Part shown: positions 8,272 to 53,059 of the stretch, in pieces
Position numbering within the stretch: position 1 is the stretch's first letter
Layout of the letters: each line of letters starts with the position of its first letter
NCBI GenBank assembly: GCA_016235545.1
Contig: JACRKB010000073.1
Location: 25,015 to 89,014 of the forward strand
Source of the DNA: Verrucomicrobiota bacterium
Lineage (GTDB): Bacteria > Verrucomicrobiota > Verrucomicrobiia > Limisphaerales > SXTU01
Reading direction: 5' to 3'
Length of the DNA stretch: 64,000 nt
Position numbers and translations under genes: made by a program
The notes under the pieces: model-generated
The model's database searches: none
Seen by the model: the letters and a program-made list of their open reading frames with translations, nothing else
What the model was told of the DNA's origin: nothing

Positions 8272-8286
8272 GCCGGGCGCGCAGGT

Positions 8287-8304
8287 TGGTGAACGTTTTC
8301 ACCA
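8287..8304. promoter_or_regulatory. Candidate LacI-type operator (inverted repeat TGGTGAA-CGTT-TTCACCA)
   Basis: Perfect 7-nt inverted arms around a 4-nt spacer, 16 nt upstream of the LacI start (8271, minus). It lies in the divergent region shared with the TBDR pseudogene (8436, plus). It has the same xxxGAA-CGTx-TTCxxx architecture as the sites at 18442 and 21119. Confidence 0.45.
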
Positions 8305-8435
8305 AAGCAATGATTTCCTTGTCCGGCCTTTCCCATCACTCACTGCCCACCTTCGTTCCTAACCGATTCGCCGGTTGCCTCAGGGCGGGATAGTTCCCTG
8401 CTGTGCGGCCGGCGATTTCCAACCCCGACACCCCC

Positions 8436-11082: not shown

Positions 11083-11203
11083 ACGCGTGATCGATTCATC
11101 CGGCGCGGCGGGGAACCGCGGGCATCCCGGTCCTCAAGCCTTGCCGCCTGACGATTTCCTCCCGGCTTTCCCCGCCGCGCCGGCGCGCGACCGCGCTTTC
11201 CGC

Positions 11204-12022: not shown

Positions 12023-13416
12023 AAGGAATTCCATACCTGCGCTGGTGGATCGCCGTGCTGCTCTTCGGGGCGGCCGTGCTGAACTACGTCGATCGACAGA
12101 CGCTTTCCGCGCTGGCGCCCACGATCCAGCGCGACCTCGCGATGGACGACCGCGCATATGCGGACATCGTGAACCTTTTTCTCGTCGCCTACACGATCGC
12201 CTACCTCGTGGCGGGATCGCTGACCGATGCGCTCGGGACGCGCGCCGGTATGATGGTCTTTGTCGCCTGGTGGTCGATCGCGAACGCGCTCACGGCCGCT
12301 GCGAGCGGCGTGCGGTCGCTCGGGGTGTTTCGTTTCGCGCTCGGACTCGGCGAGGCCGGCGTCTGGCCCGCCGCCTCGAAGGCCGTGGGCGAATGGTTTC
12401 CGGCGCGCGAGCGGGCGCTCGCGATCGGCTGCTACACGATGGGGGCGACGATGGGGGCGACGCTCGCGCCTTATCTCGTGATTCCGCTCACCTCCCATGC
12501 GTTGGGCGAAACCTGGCCGATGCTCGCGCGGCTGCTTGGCTCGGGCGCGGGCTGGAGGCTGGCGTTCGTTCTAACGGGCGCGGCGGGTTTGCTGTGGTTG
12601 ATTCCGTGGGCCGCGATTTACCGCCGGCCGGGCGAATGCCGCCTGATCGGCGAAGAGGAATTGCGCTTGATCACCGCCCCGGACGAAGGCCCGGTCGGCG
12701 ACCCGGCGCGCGCGTGGAGCTGGCGCGAGATTTTGACCAGCCGCGTAGTCTGGCTGCTGTTGTTCGCGCGGTTGCTCACCGATCCGGCGTGGTATTTTTT
12801 CCAATTCTGGTTTGCCAAATACCTGCACAGCGAGCGCGGGCTCGACCAGCGGCAACTTACGGTCACGTGGGTCATCTATGCCGCCGCAGGCGTCGGGAGT
12901 CTGCTGGGCGGCTGGCTGTCAGGCTGGCGAATCCGTCGCGGGGCGGAGGCGGCCAGCGGCCGGCTGCAAGTGATGGCCGGTTGCGCCGTCCTCATGCTGC
13001 TTTCACCGCTCGTCGCCTCGGCCGGCTCGGTGTGGGCGGCGCTGGGGTTCGCGGGGCTGATCGTCGCCGCGGCGTTGGCCTGGCTCATCAATCTCTCGGC
13101 GCTGATCGTCGATCGCGTGCCCGCGGCCGCGCTCGGCACGGTCTTTGGCGTCGTGGCGGCGGGCAGCACGCTGGGCGGGTTGCTCATGAATACGCTCGTG
13201 TCCGCGATGGTGGCGTCGGCGCCGGCCGTGCCGGCAGGGTTTCTCGACCGCGCGATCCAAGCCGGCTTGGGCCCGCTGCTTTCGCTCGTGCAGGGGCGGG
13301 GCTATGGCTGCTGGTTCTGGGTCATGGCCTGTCTGCATGCGCTGACATGGCTGCTGCTGCGGTTTGGCGGCGTGGGCCGGCGCGCGCCGCAGTCCGTTCC
13401 TTTTCCCAGCTCATGA
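12019..13416 (+). CDS. MFS transporter (ACS/hexuronate-transporter-like)
   Basis: 465 aa with ~12 predicted TM helices. The N-terminus WWIAVLLFGAAVLNYVDRQTLSALAPTIQRDL resembles ExuT/ACS-family MFS proteins. Translationally coupled on both sides through ATGA overlaps. Confidence 0.9.
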   Translation: MKGIPYLRWWIAVLLFGAAVLNYVDRQTLSALAPTIQRDLAMDDRAYADIVNLFLVAYTIAYLVAGSLTDALGTRAGMMVFVAWWSIANALTAAASGVRSLGVFRFALGLGEAGVWPAASKAVGEWFPARERALAIGCYTMGATMGATLAPYLVIPLTSHALGETWPMLARLLGSGAGWRLAFVLTGAAGLLWLIPWAAIYRRPGECRLIGEEELRLITAPDEGPVGDPARAWSWREILTSRVVWLLLFARLLTDPAWYFFQFWFAKYLHSERGLDQRQLTVTWVIYAAAGVGSLLGGWLSGWRIRRGAEAASGRLQVMAGCAVLMLLSPLVASAGSVWAALGFAGLIVAAALAWLINLSALIVDRVPAAALGTVFGVVAAGSTLGGLLMNTLVSAMVASAPAVPAGFLDRAIQAGLGPLLSLVQGRGYGCWFWVMACLHALTWLLLRFGGVGRRAPQSVPFPSS

Positions 13417-15707: not shown

Positions 15708-16136
15708 GGAGGTGCCTCCGGCCGGTTGGCCAGCCCCGCTGCCTCAGCCGGAACGCAGAGGGGGGGCAACGCCACTGAGTTTCTCGGTTCGCATGGGATC
15801 CTCCATGCCGAGACAGGCCACCAGTCGAACAATGCCGGCGGGCAGCGGCCGGCCATTGACCAGCGTCGTGACGATCACGCGGCAGGCGCATTTCAACTTG
15901 GATTCCGCTGTTGCGCGTCAATTTTAGCATAGAGACGGTGTTTTCCCGTGGGTAGCGGCGTGTCGGTTTTCAACGACGGCACAGTGGTGCGGATCAACTC
16001 ATGGAGCCGGAGGTATCCGTGCCATTCGTGCTAATCCGTGGTTCCAACTGTTAGGTTCATTTGGCCGATGGAGGAAAGGCCGGAGCCGAAACGGGACCGG
16101 TCAAGTTCCGCGGATCTGTCTTGGCAGCGATGGCCG

Positions 16137-16164
16137 AAAAAAGGGAGCCGGCGGACCGGCTCCC
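16137..16164 (-). terminator. Rho-independent terminator of the TBDR gene
   Basis: On the minus strand the sequence reads GGGAGCCGG-TCCG-CCGGCTCCC followed by TTTTTT. It starts 28 nt after the stop codon at 16192-16194. Confidence 0.75.
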
Positions 16165-16191
16165 CTGTGGTTATTGCCTATTACCCAAGAA

Positions 16192-18354
16192 TCAGAATCG
16201 CAGGCCGACGGAAGCCTTCACCCGCCGCGGCCAGCCGCGGGTGATCTGCTTCTCGACGTAGTCCTCGTCGAAGAGATTTTCGACGTTCACCTTGAAGACG
16301 AGCTTCTGGCCGCCGGAGAGCTTGCGCTCGGCGCCGAGCGCCAGATCCACGCGGGTGTAGCTCGGGGCGATCAACTGGAACCGCGCGGCGTCGTGGTCGG
16401 CCACCATGTCGCCGACGTAGATCACGCCGACGCCCGCCCAGAGATTCTTGAATCCGCCCATGTCGGGCAGCGTCTGCTTGGCCCAGATCTTGAACTGGTG
16501 AGTGGGCGCATCGCCGAGGCGCGTGCCGGCGGCCGCAAGGAAGCGAACGTCCGGGATGACATTTTCGGTATCCAAATAGGCGTAGGAGGCGATGACCTCA
16601 GTTTGCGCGGTGAGCTTGGCGTAAAGGTCGAGTTCCACGCCAGTGGCGGTCTGCTTGCCGGCGATACTGGGAACGTTGCGGGCGAGGATCGGGTCGAAGG
16701 CCTGCACCTCGATGCTTTCGCGGGTAGTGTCGAACCAGGCGAGCGTGCCGCTGAGACGCTCGGAGCCGAACTTGAAGCCCGCTTCCCAGGATTTACCCTC
16801 TTCAGGCTGACCGGGAAAGTTGCCGTTGGGGCTGAAGGACTCGCCATACATCGCGTAGGCGGTGAGGTCTTTCCGGATGCGGAACGAGGCACCGATCTGG
16901 GGGCTGGTGTTCCAGGAATTGGAGCCGCTGACGGTGGGCACGGCCGGCTGCAGATTGGTGACCTTGGGCTCGGCGTGGGAACGGCCGACACCGCCCAGCA
17001 ACGTGAGCCGCTCCTGCAGCGTCGTGAGCTGGAGCATCGCGTAGTAGCGCTCGGTCTTGCCCTCGTTGAGCTGGTATTGCGTGCGGCTATAGGCGGAGGA
17101 CGGGAATGGGGGAATATCGTAGGTGCGGGCAGACCGGTCCAACACGGCGAAGGGGCTGCCTGGCGCATTCCACTGGATGGCGCGGGAGTCAGTCTCGCCA
17201 TAAATCTGGCCGATTACCGCCGTGAGCTTGCCGATGGGCAGCTTGAACTGGCCGGTCAGGTCGGTCTGGATGTTCGTGGCCGAGTTTTTGTTATCGTTGT
17301 AAACGGGAGTGGCCGTAACCGCAGTTCCCGCGGCGTTCAGGCCGGCGCCGACGCGGCGGAGGGCATCGTAGTAGGTTTCCGAGTAGGCGGAGCCGTTGCG
17401 GAGCGTCCAGTTTTCAGAGATGTTCCAGATCAGCTCGGTGTAGGTGTTGTATTCGCGGAAGTTGGCGTAGGTGTTCGGACCAGCAGTGTTGTATTCGCGG
17501 TCCGGCATGAGGAAGAAGGCGGGGGTCGCGCCGGGGCCGAGCGGTAGCAGGATGAACGCTTCGGCGTCCTCTTTCTGCCGCAGGTAGCGCTGCTCCACCC
17601 GGAAGCTGAGGCGGCGGCTGCGCCACTCGAGCTGGCCGTTCAGAAGCGTGCGTGAGGTGTGCTCGTAATCGCGGAAACCGCCGCTGTCCTGATAGGCGCC
17701 AATCACGCGGTAGAGCAACTGGCCATCGCCGAGTTTGGCGAGCGGGCCGGTGAAGTCGGCGACGGTGCGGTAGAACTCGTAATCGCCCACCTCGAAGTCG
17801 AGGGAACGCTTGGCCACCGCGAGCGGTTTCTTCGTGACGACGTTGATGCGTCCGCCGGGCTGGCCGTTGCCGTAGAGCAGGCCGGTCGGCCCCTTCAGCA
17901 CCTCGATGCGGTCGTATTCGGCGTTGTCGCCGCGAGCCTGGAGGGCACCCGGGACGTTGAAATAGTTGCGCAGCGGCGCGCCGGCGTTGAAGCCGCGGAT
18001 CGCGAACTCCTCATAGATGTTGGAGGACGAGCGCACGCTGCTGACGTAACGGAGCGCCTCCTGGATGTTGCCCGCGCCGGTGTCGCGGATGAGTTGGTCG
18101 GTCACCACTTGGGCCGAGAAGGGTGCGTCGATCAGCGGGATGTTGACGCGCGTGCCGACCATGGAGTTGGCGACGACATAGGTATCCTCGCCGGACTGGA
18201 CGGTGAAGGGATCCAGCACGTAAACTTCCTCTTTCGCAGGACGTGAGGCCGGCGGTGTCTGGGCGACGGCGGAGATCGAACAGGCGAGCGCGCCGAGCGC
18301 ACTCAGCAGGAAGCGCCGCGCGAACGGCGCGGCGGGAACAGCATGGGGTTTCAT
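16192..18354 (-). CDS. TonB-dependent outer-membrane receptor
   Basis: Signal peptide MKPHAVPAAPFARRFLLSALGALACSISAVAQ (ATG 18354). Plug motifs are present (LDPFTVQ..., IRGFNA, DRIEVLKGPTGLLYG, GGRINVVTKKP). A long beta-barrel ends in ...KASVGLRF (terminal Phe). Confidence 0.9.
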   Translation of the reverse strand: MKPHAVPAAPFARRFLLSALGALACSISAVAQTPPASRPAKEEVYVLDPFTVQSGEDTYVVANSMVGTRVNIPLIDAPFSAQVVTDQLIRDTGAGNIQEALRYVSSVRSSSNIYEEFAIRGFNAGAPLRNYFNVPGALQARGDNAEYDRIEVLKGPTGLLYGNGQPGGRINVVTKKPLAVAKRSLDFEVGDYEFYRTVADFTGPLAKLGDGQLLYRVIGAYQDSGGFRDYEHTSRTLLNGQLEWRSRRLSFRVEQRYLRQKEDAEAFILLPLGPGATPAFFLMPDREYNTAGPNTYANFREYNTYTELIWNISENWTLRNGSAYSETYYDALRRVGAGLNAAGTAVTATPVYNDNKNSATNIQTDLTGQFKLPIGKLTAVIGQIYGETDSRAIQWNAPGSPFAVLDRSARTYDIPPFPSSAYSRTQYQLNEGKTERYYAMLQLTTLQERLTLLGGVGRSHAEPKVTNLQPAVPTVSGSNSWNTSPQIGASFRIRKDLTAYAMYGESFSPNGNFPGQPEEGKSWEAGFKFGSERLSGTLAWFDTTRESIEVQAFDPILARNVPSIAGKQTATGVELDLYAKLTAQTEVIASYAYLDTENVIPDVRFLAAAGTRLGDAPTHQFKIWAKQTLPDMGGFKNLWAGVGVIYVGDMVADHDAARFQLIAPSYTRVDLALGAERKLSGGQKLVFKVNVENLFDEDYVEKQITRGWPRRVKASVGLRF

Positions 18355-18441
18355 GGCGAGGGTCGGGGTTGCGGGCCGTAGCCCGGGGGGGATGACGGGC
18401 GGAGCGAAAGCGCTGGCGCGAGCGGTCGCAAGTCGCCGCCG

Positions 18442-18457
18442 CTCGAACACGTTCGAG
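18442..18457. promoter_or_regulatory. Candidate LacI operator CTCGAA-CACG-TTCGAG
   Basis: 16-bp inverted repeat with 6-nt perfect arms, located in the divergent TBDR/sulfatase intergenic region. It is the exact reverse complement of the site at 21119-21134. Confidence 0.55.
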
Positions 18458-18521
18458 CCCGCGGGATTTGACTGGAGGCTCCGGGTTGCGATGCTTCCGG
18501 CCTCTTCGCTCCCGCCCCCTC

Positions 18522-20033
18522 GTGAAAGCCATCGTAGTCGTTTTCGATTCCCTCAACCGCCATTGCCTGCCGCCCTACGGGGGCGAGGGCGTCCACGCGC
18601 CGAATTTCACGCGGCTGGCGGCGCGCACGGCGCGCTTCGAGGCGTCCTACGTCTGCTCGATGCCGTGCATCCCCGCGCGGCGGGATTTCCTCACCGGCCG
18701 CCCGAATTTCCTGCACCGCAGTTGGGGGCCGATGGAGCCGTTCGACGACGCGTTTCCGGAGATGCTCGGCCGCGCCGGCGTGCACACGCACCTCGTGACG
18801 GACCACCAGCATTACTTCGAGGACGGCGGGCTCAACTACCACACGCGCTACTCCTCGTGGGAGTTCTTCCGCGGCCAGGAAGGCGATCCCTGCTGCGGCC
18901 TCGCCGGCGATCCGTTGTGGCCACCGCGCGCGGCCGGGCAGAACGCCGCGCGCTCCGATCTGGTGCGGCAAGACCTCGTCAACCGCCAGCACCTGCTCAA
19001 GCGCGAGACCGACTGGCCGCAGCGGAAGACCTTCGACGCGGGGCTCGACTTCATCGGCCGCAACCATGCGCGTGACGGCTGGCTGCTCCAGATCGAGACC
19101 TTCGATCCGCACGAACCTTTCTTCAGTCCACCCGAAGCCAAGGCGGCCTACGCCGACCATTTCGCGAAGTATCGCGGCCCCGAGTTCGACTGGCCCGCCT
19201 ACGATGCCGTGAAGGAGGGTCCGGACGAGGTGCGGCATTGCCAGATGGAATACGCCGCGCTGGTCACCTATTGCGACCGCCAGCTCGGCCGCGTGCTCGA
19301 CGCGATGGATGCGCACGACCTGTGGCGCGACACGATGCTCGTCGTGTGGACCGACCACGGCTTCCTGCTCGGCGAGCACGACTGCTGGGCCAAGATGCAT
19401 GTGCCGTGGTATGAGGAACTGGCGCGCACGCCGTTCTTCGTGTGGGATCCGCGCTGCGGCGCCGCCGGCGTCGCCCGGCAGGCGCTCGTGCAGCCGTCCA
19501 TCGACCTCGCGCCCACGCTGCTGGATTTCTTCGGCGTGCCGGCCGCGCCGCACATGACCGGGTGCAACCTCCGCGCCACGCTCGCCGCCGACACGCCCGT
19601 GCGCGACGCCGCGCTCTTCGGCACCTGGGGCGGGCAGGTCAACCTCGCCGATGGGCGCCATGTCTACATGCGGGGCACGCAAAGACCCGGCGTGGCGCTG
19701 CACGAATATACGCTCATGCCGGCGCGCATGCGCCGCCTTTTCTCGCGGGAGGAACTCGCGCCGGATCGCGTCGCACTCTGCGGCCCGCTGCCCTTCACCA
19801 AGGGCATGCCCGTGCTCCGCGTGCGCCACACCGGCGGCCCACTCGACGGCGTCGTGCCGCCGGATAATCCCGAGACTGCGCGCACGCTGCTCTTCGACCT
19901 TGCGCGCGACCCGCGCCAGCAGGCGCCGCTCGCCGACCCCGCGCTGGAGGCGCGGCTGGCCGCGCGGCTCGCCGCCGGGATGCGCGCCGTGCACGCGCCG
20001 CCCGAGCAATTCGAGCGCCTCGGCCTCGCCTGA
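18522..20033 (+). CDS. Cys-type sulfatase without a recognisable signal peptide (predicted cytoplasmic)
   Basis: (V/M)KAIVVVFDSLNRH...YVCSMPCIPARRDFLTGR contains the C-x-P-x-R formylglycine motif followed by LTG. The start is either GTG 18522 or ATG 18468. Neither N-terminus has a hydrophobic h-region or a twin-arginine motif. Confidence 0.85.
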   Translation: MKAIVVVFDSLNRHCLPPYGGEGVHAPNFTRLAARTARFEASYVCSMPCIPARRDFLTGRPNFLHRSWGPMEPFDDAFPEMLGRAGVHTHLVTDHQHYFEDGGLNYHTRYSSWEFFRGQEGDPCCGLAGDPLWPPRAAGQNAARSDLVRQDLVNRQHLLKRETDWPQRKTFDAGLDFIGRNHARDGWLLQIETFDPHEPFFSPPEAKAAYADHFAKYRGPEFDWPAYDAVKEGPDEVRHCQMEYAALVTYCDRQLGRVLDAMDAHDLWRDTMLVVWTDHGFLLGEHDCWAKMHVPWYEELARTPFFVWDPRCGAAGVARQALVQPSIDLAPTLLDFFGVPAAPHMTGCNLRATLAADTPVRDAALFGTWGGQVNLADGRHVYMRGTQRPGVALHEYTLMPARMRRLFSREELAPDRVALCGPLPFTKGMPVLRVRHTGGPLDGVVPPDNPETARTLLFDLARDPRQQAPLADPALEARLAARLAAGMRAVHAPPEQFERLGLA

Positions 20034-20053
20034 ACGGCGCGGGCGCCGCTCCC

Positions 20054-21112
20054 TCACCGCGGCCGGCGTTCGGATGTCGTCGGGCCGTCCTGCCAGCGTC
20101 CTTCGACCAGAGTCGTCTGAGGCAGCACGGGCAGGCCGCGCTCGCCGCGGTAAAGCTGGCCCACCACTACGTCCGCCGCGACCCGCCCGACGACCTCAAG
20201 CCGGTGGTCGTAGCCGGTGCAGGGCAGGCGCGTCATTCGATGCGCGAGGCTGACGAAGCCGACCTCGTCCGGCACCGCGACGCCGATCGCCTCGAGCCAG
20301 TGCAGTGTCTCGTCGCCGAAGCCCAGGATGGCGTCCGGCCGGTGGGCGCGGAACCAGGCGAGGAATTTCTCGCGTTCGTATTCGTCGATGCGGGGGAAGG
20401 GCACGGCGCGCATCGCCGTGGGGCAGCGCTCGAAGTAATGCAGGAAGCCCGCCGTCCACAGTCCCCGGCTGCGCTCTTCGTCCGCGCGGCCGATGTGCAT
20501 GCCCACGCGGCGGTAGCCCAGCCGCTCCAGCCGGAGCAGCACCTCGTGCACGCAGTAGCAGTAATCGTAGAACACGCGGGAGAGGCCGGCGTTGGCCTCG
20601 AAGTAGCCGATCGCCGCGACGGCGAACGGCGCCCAGTTCATGTTCCAGCGGAAAAACGGCGAATGCAGCGGCGCGATCACGAGTCCCTCGATGCCGCGGG
20701 CCACGAGGATCTGGCCGAGGCGCTGGTCGGTCATCGACTCCGGCTGGAAGGAGATCGTCTCGAAATCGAAGCCGAGCTCCTCCGCGCGCTCCTGCGCGCC
20801 GGCCTGGTAGGCGCTGATCACGTTCCAGATGCCCGGCGGCTCCTGCGCGGGCGGACCCCAGGTGTTGACGAAGCCGATGGTCGGACGGTTGCGCGGCGAG
20901 GCCCGGGTGCGGACCTGCATCATGAGCGCGTTGACCAGCGGATTGGGCCGATAGCCGAGCTTCTCGGCGGCGCGCAGCACGCGCTGGCGGGTGCGGGCAT
21001 CGACGTTGCCGAGGTTGCGCAGCGCGAGCGAAGCGGTGGATTTGGCCACGCGCGCCGCGCGGGCGATCTGGGAGAGGGTGACGGGCACAGGCGACCTCCG
21101 GGAGTGGGCCAT
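20054..21112 (-). CDS. LacI-family transcriptional regulator
   Basis: HTH VTLSQIARAARVAKSTASLALRNLGNVDARTRQRVLRAAEKLGYRPNP. Start moved to ATG 21112 (MAHSRRS...); the ORF track extends to 21265. Confidence 0.9.
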   Translation of the reverse strand: MAHSRRSPVPVTLSQIARAARVAKSTASLALRNLGNVDARTRQRVLRAAEKLGYRPNPLVNALMMQVRTRASPRNRPTIGFVNTWGPPAQEPPGIWNVISAYQAGAQERAEELGFDFETISFQPESMTDQRLGQILVARGIEGLVIAPLHSPFFRWNMNWAPFAVAAIGYFEANAGLSRVFYDYCYCVHEVLLRLERLGYRRVGMHIGRADEERSRGLWTAGFLHYFERCPTAMRAVPFPRIDEYEREKFLAWFRAHRPDAILGFGDETLHWLEAIGVAVPDEVGFVSLAHRMTRLPCTGYDHRLEVVGRVAADVVVGQLYRGERGLPVLPQTTLVEGRWQDGPTTSERRPR

Positions 21113-21118
21113 TACGGG

Positions 21119-21134
21119 CTCGAACGTGTTCGAG
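21119..21134. promoter_or_regulatory. Candidate LacI operator CTCGAA-CGTG-TTCGAG (autoregulatory position)
   Basis: Same 16-mer as 18442-18457 in the opposite orientation. It lies 7 nt upstream of the LacI start codon and ~100 nt upstream of the divergent GPH transporter gene. Confidence 0.55.
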
Positions 21135-21234
21135 CGCGAGTCAATTGTTTCCCCGGCTCGGGCCGCCGACACTCGCTTCCCCGCGTTCATCCCCGCCCGG
21201 CCGCTTCCGCGATCACCCGCCACTCCCGACCTCC

Positions 21235-22623
21235 ATGCCCCAGCCGTCCGTCGCCACACCGCCACCCGAGGAGCGCCTCACCGTGGCGCAGAAAACCGCC
21301 TTCGGCCTCGGGTTCACCGGCAACACCCTCATGGGCATCGGCATTGAGACGATGCTCTTCCCGGTGTTCGCGCTTTATCTCGGCCTCTCGCCGCAGGTGA
21401 TCGGCCTCGCCGTCGCCCTGCCCCGGCTGTGGGACGGCGTGATGGACACCGTGATCGGCACCTACAGCGACAATTTCCGCTCCCGCTGGGGGCGGCGCCG
21501 GCCGTTTATCGTCGTCGGCGCGGTGGCGAGCGGCCTCGCCTACGCGCTCATCTGGATGGCGCCGCGCGGACTGGGCTCAAGCGGGCTGACCGCGTGGCTG
21601 CTCGTCACGCTGATCGTGTTCTGGACGGCGAACGCGGCCTTCTTCGTGCCGCTGGAGGCGCTCGGCATGGCGTTGTCGAAACACTACGACGAGCGGACCT
21701 CGCTGATGGGTTTCCGGAGTTTCTTCGCCAAGGTCGGCACGCTGGCCAGCAGTTGGAGTTTCTGGCTGGTCGAGAAGGGCTGGTTCGGCGCCGGGCAGCG
21801 CGGCGCGATCATCGTCGGCGCGATCTGGGGCGTCCTCATCATGCTGTTCGGCGCGTGGCCGGGCGTGTTCCTGCGCGAGCGCGCGGACGCGGCGGCGCCG
21901 CCGGCGGTGAAGTTCTGGCATTCGCTGAAGACGGCAGTGCGCAACGCCTCGTTCCGGCGCATCACCCTCTATCTGCTTTTCATGGCGGCCTCCGTCTCGG
22001 TCTCCTCGGCAGTGCAGTTCTACACGACGCTGTTCTGGGTGGCGCAGGGCGATTCCAAGCTCACCTCGCTGCTCACCGGCGCGGCCAGTTCGCTGAACAT
22101 CGTCTGCGGCATGCTGTCGCTGCCGCTCGTGAGCTGGGGCGCGCGGCACATCGGCAAGCACCGGATGGCGCTGGTGTCGGCCTTCGTCACCGCGCTGGGC
22201 GGGCTGCTCAGCTGGTGGTTCCTCACGCCGGCGCTCCCGTGGCTGTCGCTCGCGGTTGCGCCGTTCTTCGGCATCGGCATCACGGCGGTTTACCAGCTCT
22301 ACTTCGCGATGGTGGCGGACGTAGCGGAGGAGGGCGCGCTGCGCCACGGCGTCCGCAACGAGGGCATGTATTCGGCGATCTCGAACTGCATGATCAAGGC
22401 CGGGCTGGCGCTCTCGTTCGCCCTCGGCGGCGCACTGGTCCACTGGCTGGGTTTCACTGGCAACGACATCCGCCCGACGCCGGAGATGCTCGGGCACTTG
22501 CGTGTGCTGCGCGCGCTCCTGCCGGCGGGCACCGCCGCCCTGGCGATGCTGTTCGTCATCGGTTACCCGCTTACCAAGGAGCGCCTCGAGGCGCTGCGCG
22601 CGCAGGCGGCGCGGCCGGCCTGA
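21235..22623 (+). CDS. Glycoside-pentoside-hexuronide (GPH)/MFS-type cation symporter
   Basis: LTVAQKTAFGLGFTGNTLM...PRLWDGVMDTVIGTYSDNFRSRWGRRRPFIVVG matches the GPH hallmark D-x-x-x-G-x-x-S-D-(x)-R-S-R-x-G-R-R-R-P, with ~12 TM helices. Start at ATG 21235. Confidence 0.85.
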   Translation: MPQPSVATPPPEERLTVAQKTAFGLGFTGNTLMGIGIETMLFPVFALYLGLSPQVIGLAVALPRLWDGVMDTVIGTYSDNFRSRWGRRRPFIVVGAVASGLAYALIWMAPRGLGSSGLTAWLLVTLIVFWTANAAFFVPLEALGMALSKHYDERTSLMGFRSFFAKVGTLASSWSFWLVEKGWFGAGQRGAIIVGAIWGVLIMLFGAWPGVFLRERADAAAPPAVKFWHSLKTAVRNASFRRITLYLLFMAASVSVSSAVQFYTTLFWVAQGDSKLTSLLTGAASSLNIVCGMLSLPLVSWGARHIGKHRMALVSAFVTALGGLLSWWFLTPALPWLSLAVAPFFGIGITAVYQLYFAMVADVAEEGALRHGVRNEGMYSAISNCMIKAGLALSFALGGALVHWLGFTGNDIRPTPEMLGHLRVLRALLPAGTAALAMLFVIGYPLTKERLEALRAQAARPA

Positions 22624-22778
22624 GGCATTCATCCTATTTCATCCTTGAAAACGAAAACAGGCAGCGGGCACACCTGCGCGGATCGAAAGCTCCCGGTCGC
22701 GCGGTCCGGCCTCCGTCAGTTCCACCGCGCACCTTCCGCGGCCCGCCCGCCGGCGGAGCGACCCGGGAATTTCGACCC

Positions 22779-24134
22779 ATGAGCATCAAATCCCACCCCC
22801 GCACCTTTCCTCCGCGCTTCGCGTGGGGCGTCGCCACCGCCGCTCCGCAGATAGAGGGCGCCGCCTTCGCCGACGGCAAGGGCGAGTCCATCTGGGACCG
22901 CTACTGCCGCGTGCCCGGCAAGGTGCATAACGGCGACACGCTCGACGTCGCCTGCGACCACTACCGGCGCTACCGGAGCGACGTGGCCCTCATGGCCCGG
23001 CTGGGCGTGAAACACTACCGTCTCTCGCTCGCGTGGCCGCGCCTGCTTCCCCAGGGCCGCGGCCCGGTGAACCAGAAGGGCGTCGATTTCTACCACCGGC
23101 TCCTCGACACGCTGCACGCGCACGGCATCACGCCCTGGGTCACGCTGTTCCACTGGGATCTGCCGCAGGCCCTGGAGGACGAGGGCGGCTGGCGGCGGCG
23201 GACCACCGCCGACGCTTTCGCCGGTTATGCCGACCTCGCCGTCCGCTCGTTCCGCAGCCAGGTGAAAAACTGGATCACGTTGAATGAGACCAATTGCTTC
23301 ACGCGCCTTGCCTACGGCGGCGGCGACAAGGCGCCCGGCGCCAATGACGGCGAGGCCGTCGTCAACCAAGCCTACCATCACGCCATGCTCGCGCACGGGC
23401 ACGGCGTGCGCGCCGTGCGCGAACACGGCGGACGCGGCGCGCGCGTCGGCATCACCGACAACCCCATTGTCTCGGTGCCCGTCACGGAAACGGCGGCCGA
23501 CATCGCGGCGGCGCGCGACCTGTTCCGCTTCGAGAGCGACCGCGTGCTCGGCGCGATCTGCAACGGCCGCTACTCCGAGCGATACCTGCGCGCGGCCGGC
23601 GCGGACGCGCCGCGCTTTGACCCGCGCGATTTCCAGCTGATCGGCCAGCCGACGGACTTCCTCGGCCTGAACATCTACACCGGCCAGTTCGTCCGCGCGG
23701 GCCGGCGCGGACGCCCCGAGATCCTGCCGTTCCCCGCCGGCTACCCGCGCGCCGACAGTCCCTGGCTTTATCTCCTGCCGCAGGCGATGTATTGGGGCGC
23801 GCGTTTCGCCGCCGAGCTGCGCGGCGTCCGCTCCCTCTACATCACCGAAAACGGCGCAGGCTACGACGACGCGCCGCCGGCCGGCGGCGAGGTGCTCGAC
23901 CTGCACCGCCGCGAATACGTCCGCCAGTGCCTCGGCGAACTGCATCGCGCCATCGGCGACGGCGCGCCGGTCGACGGTTATTTCCTCTGGTCGCTGATGG
24001 ACAACTTCGAGTGGCAGGACGGCTACGCCCGTCGGTTCGGCATCGTTTACAACGATTTCGCCACGCAGAAGCGCACACCGAAGCTCAGCGCGCGCTGGTA
24101 TGCCGAAGTGATGAAAACCAACCGCCTGTTGTGA
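22779..24134 (+). CDS. GH1 family beta-glucosidase/beta-glycosidase (cytoplasmic)
   Basis: FAWGVATAAPQIEGA..., HYRLSLAWPRL, TLFHWDLPQALED, acid/base region WITLNETN and nucleophile YITENGAGY. No signal peptide. Start at ATG 22779 within track ORF 21429-24134. Confidence 0.92.
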   Translation: MSIKSHPRTFPPRFAWGVATAAPQIEGAAFADGKGESIWDRYCRVPGKVHNGDTLDVACDHYRRYRSDVALMARLGVKHYRLSLAWPRLLPQGRGPVNQKGVDFYHRLLDTLHAHGITPWVTLFHWDLPQALEDEGGWRRRTTADAFAGYADLAVRSFRSQVKNWITLNETNCFTRLAYGGGDKAPGANDGEAVVNQAYHHAMLAHGHGVRAVREHGGRGARVGITDNPIVSVPVTETAADIAAARDLFRFESDRVLGAICNGRYSERYLRAAGADAPRFDPRDFQLIGQPTDFLGLNIYTGQFVRAGRRGRPEILPFPAGYPRADSPWLYLLPQAMYWGARFAAELRGVRSLYITENGAGYDDAPPAGGEVLDLHRREYVRQCLGELHRAIGDGAPVDGYFLWSLMDNFEWQDGYARRFGIVYNDFATQKRTPKLSARWYAEVMKTNRLL

Positions 24135-24237
24135 ACTCCAACCACCGCCCCTCGAACCCGGCCCCGACGACGCCCGCCTTGCGCCCCGGGAATGGCGGCG
24201 GCCGGTGCCAACGCCACGGGCGCGCAGAGGAGCGGCG

Positions 24238-26064
24238 ATGCAGGAGCTGACCGGAGCTGCGGAGCTGGCGGAGCGCTCGGTCGGGGTCATCGCGCGACGC
24301 CTGCGCGCGAACCTGCGCCCGCCCCTCGCCGCGGAGTTGCGGGGGGCGCGGACATTCGACTGGCGCGCGGATCTCGCGGCCGGCGCCACCGTGGCGTTGC
24401 TGACCGTTCCCCAGTGCCTCGGCTTCGCGCTGATCGTGGGCCTGCCCCTCGATGTGGTGCTGGGCACCGCGGTGATCGGCGCCGTGGTCTGCACGGTGTT
24501 CTCCTCGTCGCGACACCTCGTCTTTGGGCCGACCAACACCATCAGCATCCTGCTCGCGGGCGCGGTTTTCTCCCTCGGCGACGTGCCGCTCACGCCGCTG
24601 GAGAAGGTGCTGCTGATCGGCATGCTCGTCGGCGCCTTCCAACTCGCCGCCGGCTTATCCGGCACAGGCCGGCTCGCCCGCTTCGTCTCGCGGCCCGTGG
24701 TGCTGGCCTACACGACCGGCGTGGGCGTGCTCATCGCCGCCAGCCAGCTCTCGCACCTCCTCGGCATCGGCCGCTCGTCCGATGTCACGCTGCCCGGCAC
24801 AATCCGGCATCTGGTCATCAGCCTGCTGACGTGGGATCTGCACTGGGTGACGTTGCTGGTCGGATTGGGCAGCCTCGCGCTGCTGCTCGTGTTGCGTCGC
24901 TGGCGCCCGGCTTGGCCGGAAGGGCTGATCGTGATGCTGCTGGCGGCGGTGGTTTTCAAGTTCGCGCACGAGCGGTTGCCAGGAGTCATGCTCGTCGGCG
25001 GCATGGACGAGCTGCAATTCCTGCCACACTGGGTCGGCTTGCCGCTCAATCTCGAGGGGCTGGCGCTCGTTCCACGCATCGTGGCCACCGCGCTGGCCAT
25101 CGCCCTGCTGGGGATGCTGGAGGCGGTCTCGATCGCCAAGAGCCTGGCGGCGCGCTCGGGGCAGCGCATCGATCCCGACCAGGAGCTGATCGGCATGGGT
25201 GCCGCCAACATCCTGTGCTCCGCGTTCGGCGCGATGCCCGGCTCAGCCTCGTTCCTGCGCAGCGCCGCCAACCTGCAGAGCGGCGCGCGCTCGCGGCTCG
25301 CGACGGTGCTGAGCTGCAGCCTGATTCCGGTGCTCGTGTTCGCGCTCTCGCCGCTACTCGCCTCGATTCCCGTGGCCACGCTGGCCGCCTACCTGGTGCT
25401 GATTGCCTTCCGCCTGCTCAACCCGCGGCAGGTGACGGTGGTGCGCCGCTCCACGCGCTCCGACGCGGCGGTGTTCTGGGTCACGCTCGGCTCGACGCTC
25501 TTCCTGCCCCCGGACACCGCGATCTACATCGGGGTCGGGCTGTCCGTCGGGCTTTTCCTGCAAAAGGCGAGCGAGCCCTCGCTGGTTGAATACGCGGTGG
25601 ACGAGACCGGGGCGCTGCGGGCCGCCCCCGCCCGCGCCGACGTGCCTCCCCAAATCTCCATCGTGCACGTGGAGGGCGATCTCTTCTTCGGCGCGGCCGA
25701 TCCGTTCCACGACCAGGTCCGGCAGCTCGCCGCCGAGGAACGCATCCGCGTCGTGATCCTGCGCCTGAAGAACGCGCGCCTGATCGACGCCAGCACGGTG
25801 TTGTCCCTGCTGCAGCTCCGCGAATTCCTGCACGGCGGCGGCCGGCACCTGCTGCTCAGCGGCGTGATGCCGCCGGCGATGCGCGTGCTCCGCGAAAGCG
25901 GCGCGCTCGCCGAGCTGGGCGAGGAGAACGTCTTCGTCGCCGAGGAAAATCCCACGGTGAGCACCAAGCGCGCCCTCCAGCGGGCGCAGGCCCTCCTCGG
26001 CGCGGCGCAACCCGAGGTCCGGCTCTTCTACGACACCCTCCCCGCGCCCGCCGGGGCGCAATGA
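24238..26064 (+). CDS. SulP-family anion (sulfate) transporter with a C-terminal STAS domain
   Basis: DLAAGATVALLTVPQCLGFALIVGLP and multiple TM helices, then a STAS-like tail (ISIVHVEGDLFFGAAD...VVILRLKNARLIDASTV). Start at ATG 24238, preceded by GAGGAG. Confidence 0.9.
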   Translation: MQELTGAAELAERSVGVIARRLRANLRPPLAAELRGARTFDWRADLAAGATVALLTVPQCLGFALIVGLPLDVVLGTAVIGAVVCTVFSSSRHLVFGPTNTISILLAGAVFSLGDVPLTPLEKVLLIGMLVGAFQLAAGLSGTGRLARFVSRPVVLAYTTGVGVLIAASQLSHLLGIGRSSDVTLPGTIRHLVISLLTWDLHWVTLLVGLGSLALLLVLRRWRPAWPEGLIVMLLAAVVFKFAHERLPGVMLVGGMDELQFLPHWVGLPLNLEGLALVPRIVATALAIALLGMLEAVSIAKSLAARSGQRIDPDQELIGMGAANILCSAFGAMPGSASFLRSAANLQSGARSRLATVLSCSLIPVLVFALSPLLASIPVATLAAYLVLIAFRLLNPRQVTVVRRSTRSDAAVFWVTLGSTLFLPPDTAIYIGVGLSVGLFLQKASEPSLVEYAVDETGALRAAPARADVPPQISIVHVEGDLFFGAADPFHDQVRQLAAEERIRVVILRLKNARLIDASTVLSLLQLREFLHGGGRHLLLSGVMPPAMRVLRESGALAELGEENVFVAEENPTVSTKRALQRAQALLGAAQPEVRLFYDTLPAPAGAQ

Positions 26065-26128
26065 CGCCGCCGCCGCGCGCGATGCAGATTGCCGCGCACG
26101 CGCGGACGCGCATCGTATCCGCTCACCC

Positions 26129-27418
26129 ATGCCGCCCGATTCCACCCGCGCCGATTCCCGCTCCGCCTTCGGCGTGATGACCAAGCCCATCGGGCCGCTC
26201 TGTAACCTCGACTGCGACTACTGCTATTACCTGGAGAAGGCGCACCTCTACCCGGGCGCGTCCAATCCCCGCATGTCGCCCGCGACCCTCGAACGCTACG
26301 TGCGCGACTACATCGCCGCGCAGCCGGGCCCGACGGTCAGCTTTGCCTGGCAGGGCGGCGAGCCCACGCTGCTCGGCGTGGGCTTCTTCCGCGAGGCCGT
26401 CGCGCTCCAGCGCCGCCACGCCGGCGGCAAGCGCATCGAGAACGCCCTCCAGACCAACGGCACCCTGCTCGACGACGAATGGGGCGCGTTCCTCGCCGCG
26501 GAGAATTTTCTCGTCGGCCTGAGCATCGACGGCCCGCGCCATCTGCACGACGCCTACCGCGTGGACAAGGGCCGCCAGCCCACGTTCGACCGCGTGCTCG
26601 CCGGACTCGAGGTGCTGCGCCGCCACCGCGTCGAGTTCAACACCCTCACGACCGTCCACCGGAAGAACTCCGCGCAACCGCGCGAGGTTTACCGCTTCCT
26701 CAAGTCGATCGGCTCGCGCTACCTCCAGTTCATCCCCATCGTCGAGCGGCCCGCGGCGGAGACCGGCGGCGACGAGGGCCTCTGGCTCGCTCCGCCGCCC
26801 GACCACGCCGGGGCAGCCGATCTCGACGGGCACGTTACTCCATGGAGCGTGCGGCCCGCCGACTACGGCCAGTTCCTCGGCACGATCTTCGACGAATGGG
26901 TGCGGCACGACGTCGGCCGCGTCTTCGTGCAGCAGTTCGACGCCGCCCTCGCCAACTGGTGCGGCGAGCCCGCCGGCATCTGCGTGTTCAACGAGAACTG
27001 CGGACACGGCCTCGCCCTCGAGCACAACGGCGACCTCTACAGCTGCGACCACTACGTCTATCCCGCCTACCGCCTCGGCAACCTGCTCAACGACCGGCTC
27101 GGCGACCTGGCCGCCTCGGCCCGCCAGCGCGAGTTCGGCCAGGCCAAGTCCGCCACCCTGCCCCGCTACTGCCGCGAGTGCCCCGTGCGCTTCGCCTGCC
27201 ACGGCGAGTGCCCCAAGCACCGCTTCCTCCGCACGCCGCAGGGCGAGCCCGGCCTCAATTACCTCTGCGCCGGCTACAAGAAATTTTTCCACCACATCGA
27301 CCCTGCGATGACCACCATGGCGGCGTTGCTCCAGTCGGGCCGTGCCCCGGCCGAGATCATGGCGTTGCCCCGCACGCACTGGCTGCCCGGCCGCACCAGG
27401 GCGGGCCGGACGCCGTGA
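26129..27418 (+). CDS. Anaerobic sulfatase-maturating enzyme (radical SAM / SPASM)
   Basis: Radical-SAM cluster motif CNLDCDYCYY, then GGEPTL. The C-terminal SPASM cysteine clusters read C..NENCGHG...YSCDHY and RYCRECPVRFACHGECPKHRF. Confidence 0.9.
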   Translation: MPPDSTRADSRSAFGVMTKPIGPLCNLDCDYCYYLEKAHLYPGASNPRMSPATLERYVRDYIAAQPGPTVSFAWQGGEPTLLGVGFFREAVALQRRHAGGKRIENALQTNGTLLDDEWGAFLAAENFLVGLSIDGPRHLHDAYRVDKGRQPTFDRVLAGLEVLRRHRVEFNTLTTVHRKNSAQPREVYRFLKSIGSRYLQFIPIVERPAAETGGDEGLWLAPPPDHAGAADLDGHVTPWSVRPADYGQFLGTIFDEWVRHDVGRVFVQQFDAALANWCGEPAGICVFNENCGHGLALEHNGDLYSCDHYVYPAYRLGNLLNDRLGDLAASARQREFGQAKSATLPRYCRECPVRFACHGECPKHRFLRTPQGEPGLNYLCAGYKKFFHHIDPAMTTMAALLQSGRAPAEIMALPRTHWLPGRTRAGRTP

Positions 27419-27467: not shown

Positions 27468-30400
27468 TCAGAATTTCCGGGTGAGCTCCAAGTAGTAGCT
27501 GCGGCCCTTGGCGCTGACGGTGCCGCCCTGGTAGCCGCGGGACTCGTCGGCGAGCGGCGGCTCCTCGTCGGTGAGGTTGGTCACGCCGAGGCGGACGCTG
27601 AGGCCCGCCAGCAGCTTGTTTTCCTTGCCGAATCGGTAGGCGACGTAGGCGTTCTGCTGGATGACGTCCTCGATCCACCAGCGGTAGCGGACCACGCCGC
27701 CGGTGTCGTTGTAGACCTTGATGTAGTCGGGCTGGCCGAGGGATTCATAGACGGTCTGGGTGGTGGCGGCGCCGGTATCCATCGAGCCGCCGTAATACTC
27801 GGCGAACCAGCCTGCGCTCCAACCCTTGAGGCGCCAGTTGAGGCTGAGGTTGCCGCGCCACTTGGCATTGCCGTTCTCCTCGAGCACGGAGTCGACCGGC
27901 GAGTCCTCGTCGACCTTTTCGTCGAACTTGCGGTTGTAGGTGGCGCCGGCGCGGACATCGAACTGGCCGAAGCGATTCTTCGGCAGCCGGTAGTTGAGCG
28001 CGAAGTCGATGCCTTCGAGATCGCGGCCGGAAAGGTTGAGATAATCGTCGATGACGCTGAGGACGGCGCCGACCGGGGCGCGCTGCTCGCTGGCGGGGCG
28101 GCCGGCGTTGTAGGCGGCGTAGGCGTCGCGGTCGGCCTGGGTGACGGGGGCGCGCGTGACCTTGGGGTTGCCGCGGTAGTTGGCGGTGCCGGAGCCGGTG
28201 TCGAGGGCGTTGGGGTTGCCGCCGGCGGCGAGGGTGAAGGCATCAAGCAGCTCCTCGTCGCGCAGGAGCTGGCCGGTGGCGCTGACGTTGTCGATGACCT
28301 TGTTCTGATCCATGCGCCACCAGTCGGCGGTGAGGGTGAGGCCCTTGATCCACGGCACTTCGAAGGCGACACCGATCGTGGCGATCTTGGATTCCTCGGG
28401 CTCGAGGGAGGCGTTGCCCTGGCGGAAGACGGTGCGGTTGGTGGGGCCGTCGGTGATGAGGTTGGTGACCTCGAAGCGATAGGGGTCGGAGACGCCGGTG
28501 ACGGAGCGCTGGAGGGGCGAGGTGTTGGTCTGGACGAGATTGGGGGCGCGGAAGGACTCGTTGAAGGAGGCGCGCACGAGGAAACGGCTGGCCGGGCGCC
28601 AGGCGAGGGAGTATTTGGGCTTAAAGGCGTCGCCGAAGTCGGAGAACTTCTCGTAGCGGCCGGCGACGGAGAGTTCGAGGAGCTTGACGAGAGGCAGTTG
28701 GTTGCCCTTGCCGACGAAGGGCACGAGCACCTCGGCGTAGCCGGAGATGACGTCGCGGTCGGAGGCGAGGTTGACGTTGGGGCTGAGGGCGATGAAGTCG
28801 TTGTCGATGGCCGGCAGGACGAACCCCGCGCCGTTCTGGCCGTGGAAGGGCGGGCGCCAGTCCTTGTAGGTCTCGTAGCGATACTCGACGCCGGCGGCGG
28901 TGCCGATGCGGCCGCCCCAGAAATCCCAGACGGTGCCGTTGATCTTGGCGTCCCAGGTGGCAAGCTCCGTGGTGCCTTCGCGGATGAAGGTGTCGTAGAG
29001 GGGATCGACGACGCTGGCGGGGTTGGTGTAGGGCTGGTCGATTTGGATGACGCCGCCGACGTTGCGGAAGGTGTAGCCGAAGGGGTTGAAGGCGGTGGCG
29101 TCGGTGCGGACGAGGGCCTCGGCGAGCCGGCTGTGGCGGATGTTGTAGTCCTCCTCGTCGCGCGTCCAAGCGCGCGAGTAGAGGAGGGCCGATTCCCACT
29201 CGAAGTCGCCGTAGGTCTTGCCACGGAGACCGGCGACGCCACGGAGGGCCTGCGAGAGGACGTTGATGTCGCGCTGGCGGAACTCGCGCGGGCGCACGCC
29301 GGCGGTGAGGAGGACATCGGCGGGCGCGCCGGTGATGCGGGGCGTGCCGTCGGCGTTGGGCGCGCCGGTGGGATGGTAGAAACGCGAGCCGAAGGGATTC
29401 CAAGGATTGTCGCGGCTGACGAAGATGTTGACATCGTCGGTGGCGTCGACGGCGACGGGATCGCGGTGGTTGAAGGATTCGGCCCGATAGTAGGAGAGTT
29501 CGCCGAAGGCGCTGAGGCGGTCGTTGATCTGATGGTCGAGGGCGGTGAAGAAGTTGATGCGGTCGGTGCGCGGGAGGATGACGCGGTCCTGGTTCAGGTT
29601 GTAATAGTAGTCGCGTTCGACGCTGGTGGGGGAGCGCGAGGGCGTGCTCTGGCGGAAACCGACGCCGCCGGCCGCGAGCGGCACGAAGAAGAACGAGCCG
29701 GAGGTGGAGGCGGTGAGCGTGGTGGAGGGTGTGGTGGAAGTGGTGATGCCGGCGTTGCCGGTGGGACGCGCGCCGACGAAGACGCCGCTGGAGTTGAACG
29801 TGCCGCGCTGGAAGTTGCCGAACTGGGACGCGCTGGAGCGGTTGTCGAAATCGTTGTCGGTGGTGGACCACGGCTCGGGGAGATTGGCCGTGCGGCGGAT
29901 GTCGGAGTCCTTGGAGAATCGGCGCTGGTTGGTGCCGAGGAGGTCGCGGTGATAGTAGTCGAGCATCGCGAGGACGCTGGTGCGACCACCGTTGAAGAGT
30001 TGGCCGCCGGAGAGGGTCACGCGCCAGTCATTGGCCCCGCCGTGCTCGGTGACGCTGCCGCGCACGGAGAGTTCGTAGCCGTTGTAGTCGCGGCGGAGGA
30101 TGGTGTTGACCACGCCGGCGGCGGCGTCGGCGCCGTAGATGGCGGACGCGCCGTCGCGGAGGACCTCGACGCGGTCGATCGCGGCCATGGGGAGCTGGTT
30201 GACGTTGACGGCGAGAGCCGGGGCGCCGCCCTCGGCCTGGGAGATGGGGTGCGGGGCGAGGCGGCGGCCGTTGATGAGGACGAGGGTGTTGCCCGAGCCG
30301 ATGCCGCGGAGGTTGAGCGAGGTGTTGTCGCCGCGGGCGTCGGCACCGAGAACGTTGGTCTCGGTCAGGGTGAGGACGCCGCCGCTGGGGAGCATCTGCA

Positions 30401-30635: not shown

Positions 30636-30643
30636 GGGAGGGG

Positions 30644-30657
30644 CAACGACGTCGTTG
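30644..30657. promoter_or_regulatory. Perfect 14-bp palindrome CAACGACGTCGTTG in the 5' leader of the large TBDR gene
   Basis: Self-complementary 14-mer located 9 nt upstream of start codon 30635 (minus strand). It could be an operator or an RNA hairpin occluding translation initiation. Confidence 0.3.
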
Positions 30658-30784
30658 TTCCGGAGGCGCTGAGCTGGCAAGGGCATCAGGGGGGGTAGTT
30701 CTACGCATACTCGGAGTCGCCGGGCAAAACCCGCGCTCATCGCACTTGTCTCCCGCAGCGGTCTGTCGAAGATGGCTCCGCATC

Positions 30785-33508: not shown

Positions 33509-33517
33509 GAGAGAGGC

Positions 33518-52937: not shown

Positions 52938-53059
52938 CACGTAATCGGAAAAAATCGGTTCATCCTTGGGGAACGGCCATTGCCGTGGTCCGCACCGGAC
53001 GGCGCATAGCGTTCGGTGCGGGCTTCCTCCACGAAGCATTGTTCCGCTGCTCTTTCGGC

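Follow-up and report, generated by a model that had tools for sequence, protein, structure and literature searches.

Gene content and layout of the locus

We analysed a stretch of 64 kb (67% GC; hereafter the window) of contig JACRKB010000073.1 from a Verrucomicrobiota bacterium, with a focus on seven genes between positions 16192 and 27418 that an earlier reading of the sequence (hereafter the original prediction) had put forward as a pathway for the uptake and cytoplasmic desulfation of a sulfated beta-glycoside. Gene families were called by Pfam and NCBIfam scans, which recovered all seven genes in place and with the families that had been named. As a correction to the proposed gene order, LacI is encoded on the minus strand, tail to tail with the sulfatase and head to head with the symporter. 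The features of the locus are as follows.

16192-18354, minus strand: TBDR1, TonB-dependent outer-membrane receptor, about 720 aa with signal peptide; Plug and TonB_dep_Rec_b-barrel domains
18442-18457: palindrome CTCGAACACGTTCGAG, putative LacI operator 1, in the divergent TBDR1/sulfatase intergenic region
18522-20033, plus strand: leaderless S1 (formylglycine-type) sulfatase, 503 aa, GTG start; PF00884
20054-21112, minus strand: LacI-family repressor, 352 aa; PF00356 and PF13377 (Peripla_BP_3)
21119-21134: palindrome CTCGAACGTGTTCGAG, putative LacI operator 2, reverse complement of site 1
21235-22623, plus strand: GPH-type (MFS_2) glycoside:cation symporter, 462 aa; PF13347, 224 bits
22779-24134, plus strand: leaderless GH1 beta-glucosidase/galactosidase, 451 aa; PF00232 464 bits, TIGR03356 500.5
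24238-26064, plus strand: SulP-family anion transporter with STAS domain; PF00916 and PF01740
26129-27418, plus strand: anSME sulfatase maturase, radical SAM/SPASM; TIGR03942 499.9 against a cut-off of 349.45
27468-30740, minus strand: TBDR2, second TonB-dependent receptor, convergent

The layout is that of two divergent promoter regions, one between TBDR1 and the sulfatase and the other between LacI and GPH, followed by the co-directional genes GPH, GH1, SulP and anSME with gaps of approximately 155, 103 and 64 nt. Scanning of the window returned no sigma-70 consensus promoter and terminator-like sites at chance level, and is of no help for setting operon limits in a genome of 67% GC. Long spurious open reading frames (ORFs) are common in the window because of this GC content, and the apparent GPH-GH1 fusion suggested by a 901-aa ORF (21429-24134) was rejected as a frame artefact, given that this ORF crosses GPH in a different reading frame and shares the frame of GH1 only.

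A conserved palindrome shared by both divergent promoter regions

Reading of both divergent intergenic regions revealed an exact 16-bp palindrome (CTCGAAC-NN-GTTCGAG, CTCGAACNNGTTCGAG; written as a search pattern, TCGAACNNGTTCGA), whose 7-2-7 form had been missed by the settings of our inverted-repeat search. The palindrome occurs twice in the 64 kb, and its second copy is separated from the LacI ATG by 7 bp and from GPH by about 100 bp, upstream of both genes. No further site was found in the window even with two mismatches, and none is present upstream of SulP, anSME or TBDR2. Exact matches were obtained in 0 of 100 dinucleotide-preserving shuffles.

In addition, a 14-bp core (TCGAAC-NN-GTTCGA) is present at both orthologous positions in two relatives, L001 and L169, which encode LacI orthologues in the same position (79% and 95% identity, respectively). 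In pairwise alignments, the intergenic DNA that flanks the core has diverged in both relatives, with many mismatches and several indels. Elsewhere in the 172 fetched loci (about 2.4 Mb), the core was encountered once, within a coding region.

Since the 7-2-7 arrangement gives no useful hairpin and both copies are located at gene 5' ends, a repressor operator is the natural reading of the palindrome, and the protein most obviously suited to bind both copies is LacI, whose gene they enclose. The conservation of this shared site argues for one LacI regulon that would consist of TBDR1, the sulfatase, LacI itself and GPH-GH1, with the repressor binding at both sites and the genes being expressed together.

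A leaderless sulfatase of a large family

As had been claimed, the sulfatase has a canonical C-I-P-A-R formylglycine motif, which is found inside SMPCIPARRDFLTGR at residues 49-53 of the 503-aa protein together with the expected xxxLTGR context, and PF00884 matches the protein at 107 bits against a cut-off of 25. C49, P51 and R53 are invariant in 26 aligned sequences, and D9, H97, H197, D278, H279 and K291 are invariant across the family alignment. In 15 of 81 genomes, the family gene has FGE (11 loci) or anSME (5 loci) encoded no more than 7 kb away, mostly in direct adjacency. Given the invariant CxPxR motif and catalytic residues and the frequent proximity of FGE or anSME, dependence of the sulfatase on formylglycine is plausible. 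A pairwise alignment with choline sulfatase further showed that the family-invariant His95 (residues 94-97, TDHxHY) takes the place of the Lys in the GKMH motif, which may represent an unusual active-site arrangement.

The original prediction also held that the sulfatase has no signal peptide from either of two possible starts, and this is borne out by the comparison with homologues. The ORF is limited upstream by TTG 18468, so that at most 18 extra residues are possible, which are neither hydrophobic nor twin-arginine, and the sulfatase domain begins at residue 2. The 25 homologues aligned (Verrucomicrobiota, Planctomycetota, Armatimonadota and metagenome sources; 55-81% identity to the window sulfatase) match from MKAI.V.FDSLNRH onward, with short N-terminal extensions in two gene calls only, and GTG 18522 of the window is an ATG at exactly the same place in the 81% relative L001. 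The alternative start TTG 18468 is part of a TTGAC block that is conserved between the window and L001 and resembles a -35 box more than a site of translation initiation. Taken together, 18522-20033 is the best-supported reading of the sulfatase gene. Just downstream of the palindrome (18466-18496), TTTGAC and GCGATGCT blocks, 16 nt apart, are conserved with L001 and resemble a -35 and a -10 box, as would be expected of a sulfatase promoter.

Hydropathy was rejected as a signal-peptide test, because strand beta-1 (KAIVVVFD) is as hydrophobic as a real signal and the result is hence misleading. This strand is the sole hydrophobic N-terminal stretch, bears the invariant Asp9 and has a predicted local distance difference test score (pLDDT) of about 91 in the structural model. 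The leader call was made on comparative evidence instead, and neither this nor inspection of the sequence from both starts revealed a Sec or Tat signal peptide ahead of beta-1. The family is leaderless throughout, including its Gram-positive members (Streptomyces, Paenibacillus), and a cytoplasmic location of the sulfatase is supported by every sequence criterion that we applied.

The sulfatase belongs to a very large family without a characterised close relative. A family scan returned at least 599 species-level genome loci from about 11 phyla, all with more than 50% identity and matched from residue 1, and the hosts include Streptomyces, Microbacterium, Paenibacillus, Caldilineaceae, Latescibacterota and Devosia; a sulfatase in a Lacunisphaera metagenome-assembled genome (MAG) is 73% identical. 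The AlphaFold model (pLDDT 82.7, predicted TM-score 0.89) has an S1 fold, and Foldseek matched S1 structures at probability 1.00 with TM-scores of 0.56-0.67 and 15-19% identity across many S1 subfamilies. As the model is equidistant from many of these, the structure search gave no clue to the substrate. No close solved structure was found by sequence (best E 3e-20 with a single sequence and 2e-29 with a profile), and the sulfatase scored below the cut-offs of the models for choline sulfatase (TIGR03417, 105 vs 433), arylsulfatase (PRK13759, 95.6 vs 481) and PehA (88.8 vs 900).

Receptor, symporter and beta-glycosidase

TBDR1 is encoded by an ORF at 16192-18450 on the minus strand, in which the probable ATG at 18354 gives MKPHAVPAAPFARRFLLSALGALACSISAVAQ. 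In L001 the receptor gene is conserved and likewise adjoins the sulfatase, and its position in L169 is taken by a truncated gene on the minus strand. No SusD-like gene was present among the annotated genes, TBDR1 lacks a SusC signature, and the SusC matches of TBDR2 were weak and below cut-off.

The symporter was provisionally assigned to the GPH type by PF13347 (cut-off 27), with TIGR00792 matching below its cut-off (163.8 vs 231.35), and it represents a rare subfamily of which ten database clusters were found at 51-95% identity before the next matches drop to 34%. The GH1 protein exceeds the cut-off of the TIGR03356 (BGL) model (478.5), retains both catalytic glutamates (TLNE168 and ITE356NG) and matches many beta-glucosidases in the PDB at E 1e-100 to 1e-139. 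It is 67-74% identical to proteins of the Opitutaceae strains TAV1/4/5 and EW11 and of Opitutaceae MAGs, a very common Opitutaceae clade. Together with the Lacunisphaera match of the sulfatase, these named homologues make Opitutaceae the probable family of the source bacterium. Neither this GH1 nor its orthologues carry a leader, as the original prediction had stated for the window protein. The enzyme and its orthologues have TLNE[T/M]xCF after the acid/base glutamate in place of the near-universal NEP.

Comparative gene neighbourhoods

For comparison of neighbourhoods, 81 species-level genome loci anchored on the sulfatase were searched with all window proteins by tblastn, and neighbouring ORFs were clustered de novo. 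The relative L169 (sulfatase 93% identical; found via the GPH gene) has retained sulfatase-LacI-GPH-GH1-SulP-anSME, and L001 has retained TBDR-sulfatase-LacI-GPH-GH1. Conservation of the complete seven-gene set is thereby limited to one very close relative, L169, and the idea of a broadly conserved cluster was rejected on the 81 loci.

More distant members of the sulfatase family are found in other settings. In the Lacunisphaera relative, the family sulfatase is accompanied by LacI, a TBDR, an SSF symporter and another sulfatase that is likewise leaderless. In nine loci of actinobacteria and Devosia (L027, L039, L057, L058, L067, L069, L077, L079 and L080), the family gene is flanked by FGE, PadR and MFS_1; MFS adjoins it in seven actinobacterial loci, and a GH3 beta-glucosidase is nearby in six loci (L024, L027, L058, L067, L079 and L080), the GH3 proteins inspected (L027 and L067) being leaderless. 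On gene content, these FGE/MFS/GH3 loci appear to parallel the theme of sulfatase, transporter and beta-glucosidase seen in the window through non-homologous parts. A CUT1 ABC importer adjoins the family sulfatase in six loci, including Paenibacillus, and multi-sulfatase clusters are a further lineage-specific theme. A conserved PhyH-PhyH-sulfatase cluster (around 8000-18000 of the loci) was observed in Latescibacterota and Gemmatimonadota (L009, L011, L013, L018 and L021), often followed by Zn-ADH, SDR and Gfo/Idh/MocA genes, which hints at a different, oxidative downstream route.

The symporter provides a second anchor. Five distant contexts of GPH orthologues (52-57% identity) usually contain GH1 orthologues (60-66%), GH42, GH2, a GDSL esterase, a TBDR, LacI and a secreted beta-helix protein, and TBDRs of 740-770 aa are present in four of them. 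In L172, an unrelated contig of 53% GC, a GH42-LacI-sulfatase-GDSL operon encodes a leaderless sulfatase that belongs to the window family and is 52% identical along its whole length, and this operon is divergent from the orthologous GPH (53%) and close to the orthologous GH1 (60%) and a TBDR. L167 has the order GH1-GPH-GDSL-GH42-TBDR-LacI together with a different leaderless sulfatase. Independent recurrence of a sulfatase with GPH-GH1 is thus confined to these two of the five distant contexts.

The unit to which the sulfatase has been added is ordinary, as the GH1 clade is common and occurs in sulfatase-free contexts that include the plain TBDR-MFS_2-LacI-GH1 unit of L173. The distinctive feature of the lineage studied here is the insertion of a sulfatase between the TBDR and LacI, accompanied by a second copy of the palindrome.

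A proposed route for a sulfated beta-glycoside

Based on gene identities and the shared site, we propose that the LacI repressor binds the 7-2-7 palindrome in both divergent promoter regions and would thereby co-repress TBDR1, the sulfatase, its own gene and the GPH-GH1 operon, with the sulfated beta-glycoside acting as inducer. A small sulfated beta-glycoside, which might be a monosaccharide or an oligosaccharide or else bear the sulfate on its aglycone, would pass the outer membrane via TBDR1 and be carried over the inner membrane by the GPH symporter. In the cytoplasm, the formylglycine sulfatase would then take off the sulfate and GH1 would cut the beta-glycosidic bond, in either order. 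The anSME would serve as a general maturase for all sulfatases of the cell, and SulP may handle sulfate. We consider this LacI-controlled TBDR1-sulfatase-LacI-GPH-GH1 route, with SulP-anSME standing apart, to be somewhat probable. The core of the original prediction, import of an intact sulfated glycoside followed by desulfation inside the cell, is thereby supported by the palindrome that ties the leaderless sulfatase to TBDR1, LacI, GPH and GH1 and by the recurrence in L172, and the role it had assigned to SulP and anSME is not supported.

Several observations weigh against the proposed route. TBDR1 passes the siderophore receptor model TIGR01783 (249 bits vs a cut-off of 223.5), and the central 2 bp of the palindrome depart from the CG that many LacI operators typically have. 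In the 81 genomes, no single gene consistently accompanies the sulfatase family, and lineage-specific themes only were seen. Furthermore, three of the five distant GPH loci (L164, L165 and L170) have no sulfatase within the fetched range, nor was one found beside the GH1 clade (69-74% identity) in any of four further Opitutaceae contexts.

An alternative is an ordinary beta-glucoside unit, for example for cellobiose or an aryl glucoside, that stands beside a functionally unrelated orphan cytoplasmic sulfatase. The latter would act on a non-glycoside sulfate ester, which could be an osmolyte or choline-like compound or, as with Pseudomonas AtsA, one used for sulfur scavenging. Sulfatase-free TBDR, MFS_2, LacI and GH1 units do occur in Opitutaceae, the sulfatase family is free of a fixed context across phyla, and among the solved structures that come nearest to it by sequence are those of cytoplasmic choline sulfatases and of phosphonate-monoester-hydrolase-like enzymes. 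We nevertheless regard this alternative as unlikely, given that an identical, conserved palindrome precedes both the sulfatase and LacI/GPH, that L172 combines a sulfatase of the same family with orthologous GPH and GH1 and has it in one operon with LacI, GH42 and a GDSL esterase, and that the window sulfatase scores far below the cut-offs for choline sulfatase and arylsulfatase.

SulP and anSME as a separate module

The original prediction had made SulP and anSME integral parts of the pathway. In its full form, such a seven-gene pathway would have SulP export or exchange the released sulfate, anSME dedicated to the leaderless sulfatase, and both genes co-transcribed with GPH-GH1. GPH, GH1, SulP and anSME are indeed co-directional with no terminator-like site in the gaps, the array is retained in L169, and other anion transporter genes are found near GPH-orthologue loci (SulP in L165 and Na_sulph_symp (DASS) in L172). 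However, L001 has neither SulP nor anSME and carries secreted esterases in their place. The start of SulP is fixed by an AGGAG-N7-ATG conserved with L169, and beyond these two elements the spacer between GH1 and SulP shows little conservation with that relative and also lacks the palindrome; the conserved motif comprises a ribosome-binding site and the start codon. A metagenome scan anchored on SulP yielded two close relatives (54-55% identity), L084 and L085, the other 78 matches being paralogues at around 30% identity and hence uninformative. In both relatives, a 71%-identical anSME lies immediately 3' of SulP, with a gap of 4 bp in L085, and neither GPH, GH1 nor a sulfatase was found near the pair, which in L085 sits inside a LacI-ADH-SulP-anSME-MalK-like operon. 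SulP(STAS) and anSME are thus tightly adjacent in four genomes with three different upstream contexts.

Window, 24238-27418: SulP-anSME pair
L169, 6711-9899: SulP-anSME pair
L084, about 7971-11131: SulP-anSME pair
L085, 6233-9343: SulP-anSME pair

A dedicated maturase is also at odds with the presence of a second, exported S1 sulfatase in the window.

54777-56600, plus strand: exported S1 sulfatase, 607 aa, with signal peptide, CAPSR motif and a domain that starts at residue 54

This gene is flanked by a carboxylesterase (52985-54637) and a TBDR (56604-58862). As its product needs a maturase as well, anSME is not dedicated to the leaderless sulfatase, and the argument of the original prediction that a cytoplasmic maturase points to a cytoplasmic sulfatase falls away, since the location of anSME is uninformative on that of a sulfatase. 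Nor is anSME obligatory for the family, considering that FGE is encoded within 7 kb of the family sulfatase in 11 genomes. Finally, SulP remains below the cut-off of the sulfate permease model (TIGR00815, 273 vs 380), also matches the DauA and BicA models below their cut-offs, and has family relatives that carry dicarboxylate or bicarbonate. Taking the absence from L001, the recurrence as a pair elsewhere, the lack of an upstream palindrome and the needs of the exported sulfatase together, we judge SulP-anSME to be a separate two-gene module that happens to follow GH1 in this lineage, and a full seven-gene pathway to be less likely still than an orphan sulfatase. A role of SulP in sulfate handling is possible. 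To our knowledge, anion transporters have not been described as being linked to the maturases of sulfatases.

Neighbouring genes

Upstream of the locus, a separate carbohydrate module extends over 5439-15707.

5439-7355, minus strand: GH16 with Golvesin_C domain
7228-8298, minus strand: second LacI, adjoining the GH16 gene
8440-11082: 880-aa protein with no Pfam match
11959-13416: MFS_1 transporter
about 13470-15707: PF12831 FAD oxidoreductase

Downstream, a TPR histidine kinase and a TPR multi-haem cytochrome c are encoded on the minus strand at 31472-35764. TBDR2 was rejected as a member of the unit, as L169 lacks this receptor and no copy of the palindrome precedes its gene. In L169 the cytochrome gene directly follows anSME, so TBDR2 and the kinase are either insertions here or losses in L169.

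It is very improbable that the locus is the remnant of a larger one for a decorated (sulfated and/or acylated) beta-linked oligosaccharide of a plant, algal or microbial polysaccharide, in which a secreted beta-helix enzyme of the relatives would cut the polymer, cytoplasmic GH1, GH42, GH2, GDSL and sulfatase would finish the fragments, and the sulfatase/GH1 branch alone would survive in the window: GPH-orthologue loci do repeatedly hold GH1, GH42, GH2, GDSL, SASA, a secreted beta-helix protein, TBDR and LacI, and the L001 core is surrounded by GH5, SASA and several secreted esterases, but none of these extra genes lies inside the palindrome-delimited regulon of the window, and the neighbouring GH16 adjoins a different LacI.

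Implications for the sulfatase family

The TBDR1-sulfatase-LacI-GPH-GH1 route proposed here might be an instance of a more general arrangement. The family could constitute an S1 subfamily for the cytoplasmic desulfation of imported sulfated glycosides or oligosaccharides, joined in each lineage to whatever importer and beta-glycosidase that lineage offers, a generalisation that we offer tentatively and hold to be doubtful. The partner sets may then be GPH and GH1 in the window, MFS and GH3 in actinobacteria, a CUT1 ABC importer in Paenibacillus and others, and SSF in Lacunisphaera. Models of glycan desulfation in Gram-negative bacteria usually place this step in the periplasm or at the cell surface. 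If the generalisation is true, importing first and desulfating inside would be widespread and exist side by side with the periplasmic or extracellular route on which current models mostly rely, and in the case proposed here the sulfate ester would cross both membranes before its removal. The locus thus represents a concrete, testable case in Verrucomicrobia, with a candidate operator, a repressor, two transport steps and two cytoplasmic enzymes, and identification of the substrate of the sulfatase would annotate many hundreds, possibly thousands, of genes. In addition, the SulP-anSME pair provides a second, small lead on how sulfatase maturation might be coordinated with anion transport.

Comparison with known systems

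The cytoplasmic arylsulfatase AtsA of Pseudomonas aeruginosa works with the sulfate-ester ABC importer AtsRBC in sulfur scavenging under sulfate-starvation control. The locus resembles this system in that a cytoplasmic Cys-type S1 sulfatase would act on an imported sulfate ester, and differs from it in that its putative control element is a LacI-type site common to sugar-catabolic genes.

By sequence, the nearest solved structures are choline sulfatase BetC (PDB 6fny) and dimeric sulfatases/phosphonate-monoester-hydrolase-like enzymes (4upl and 4upi), which share with the window sulfatase the S1 fold, the Cys-type CxPxR motif and a DH rather than DN metal-ligand pair, although the similarity amounts to E 3e-20 to 2e-29 only, with the low structural identity and TM-scores given above. 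The periplasmic or exported glycan sulfatases of polysaccharide utilization loci in Bacteroidota (for example BT4656 S1_11 and BuS1_11) likewise combine the S1 fold with TonB-dependent uptake and glycoside hydrolases. In contrast to the window sulfatase, which has neither a SusD partner nor a leader, they carry signal peptides and act before inner-membrane transport. The closest counterparts in gene content are the Opitutaceae TBDR-MFS_2/GPH-LacI-GH1 units such as L173, which have the same four kinds of genes, a 74%-identical GH1 and a divergent LacI, but no sulfatase.

That no described pathway of this composition was known to the original prediction is an overstatement in view of the N-acetylglucosamine-6-sulfate (GlcNAc-6-sulfate) locus of Bifidobacterium breve UCC2003, where an importer, a cytoplasmic sulfatase and an anSME are found together (PMC6045583). 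This locus, Bbr_0846-0853, comprises nagA1/nagB2, the transporter Bbr_0851, the sulfatase Bbr_0852 and atsB/anSME (Bbr_0853), and supports growth on GlcNAc-6-sulfate (PMC6045583, which cites Egan et al. 2016, AEM 82:6611). Both loci cluster an importer with a sulfatase and an anSME, the B. breve set being induced by the sulfated sugar, and in both the substrate would be imported first and desulfated inside, although the B. breve cell has no periplasm. Unlike the locus studied here, that of B. breve belongs to a Gram-positive host and has no TBDR, GPH or GH1. A sulfated amino-sugar is used there and channelled into nagA/nagB, of which Pfam found no domains between 16 and 31 kb in the window.

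Our literature search returned nothing specific on a route of cytoplasmic sulfatase, GPH and GH1, or on a bacterial desulfo-glucosinolate operon, and glucosinolates as the substrate would be pure speculation. Import of a sulfate ester followed by its cytoplasmic desulfation is already known, and what appears to be new at this locus is the combination of such a sulfatase with a TonB-dependent receptor, a GPH symporter and a GH1 enzyme under one putative LacI-type site in a Gram-negative bacterium.

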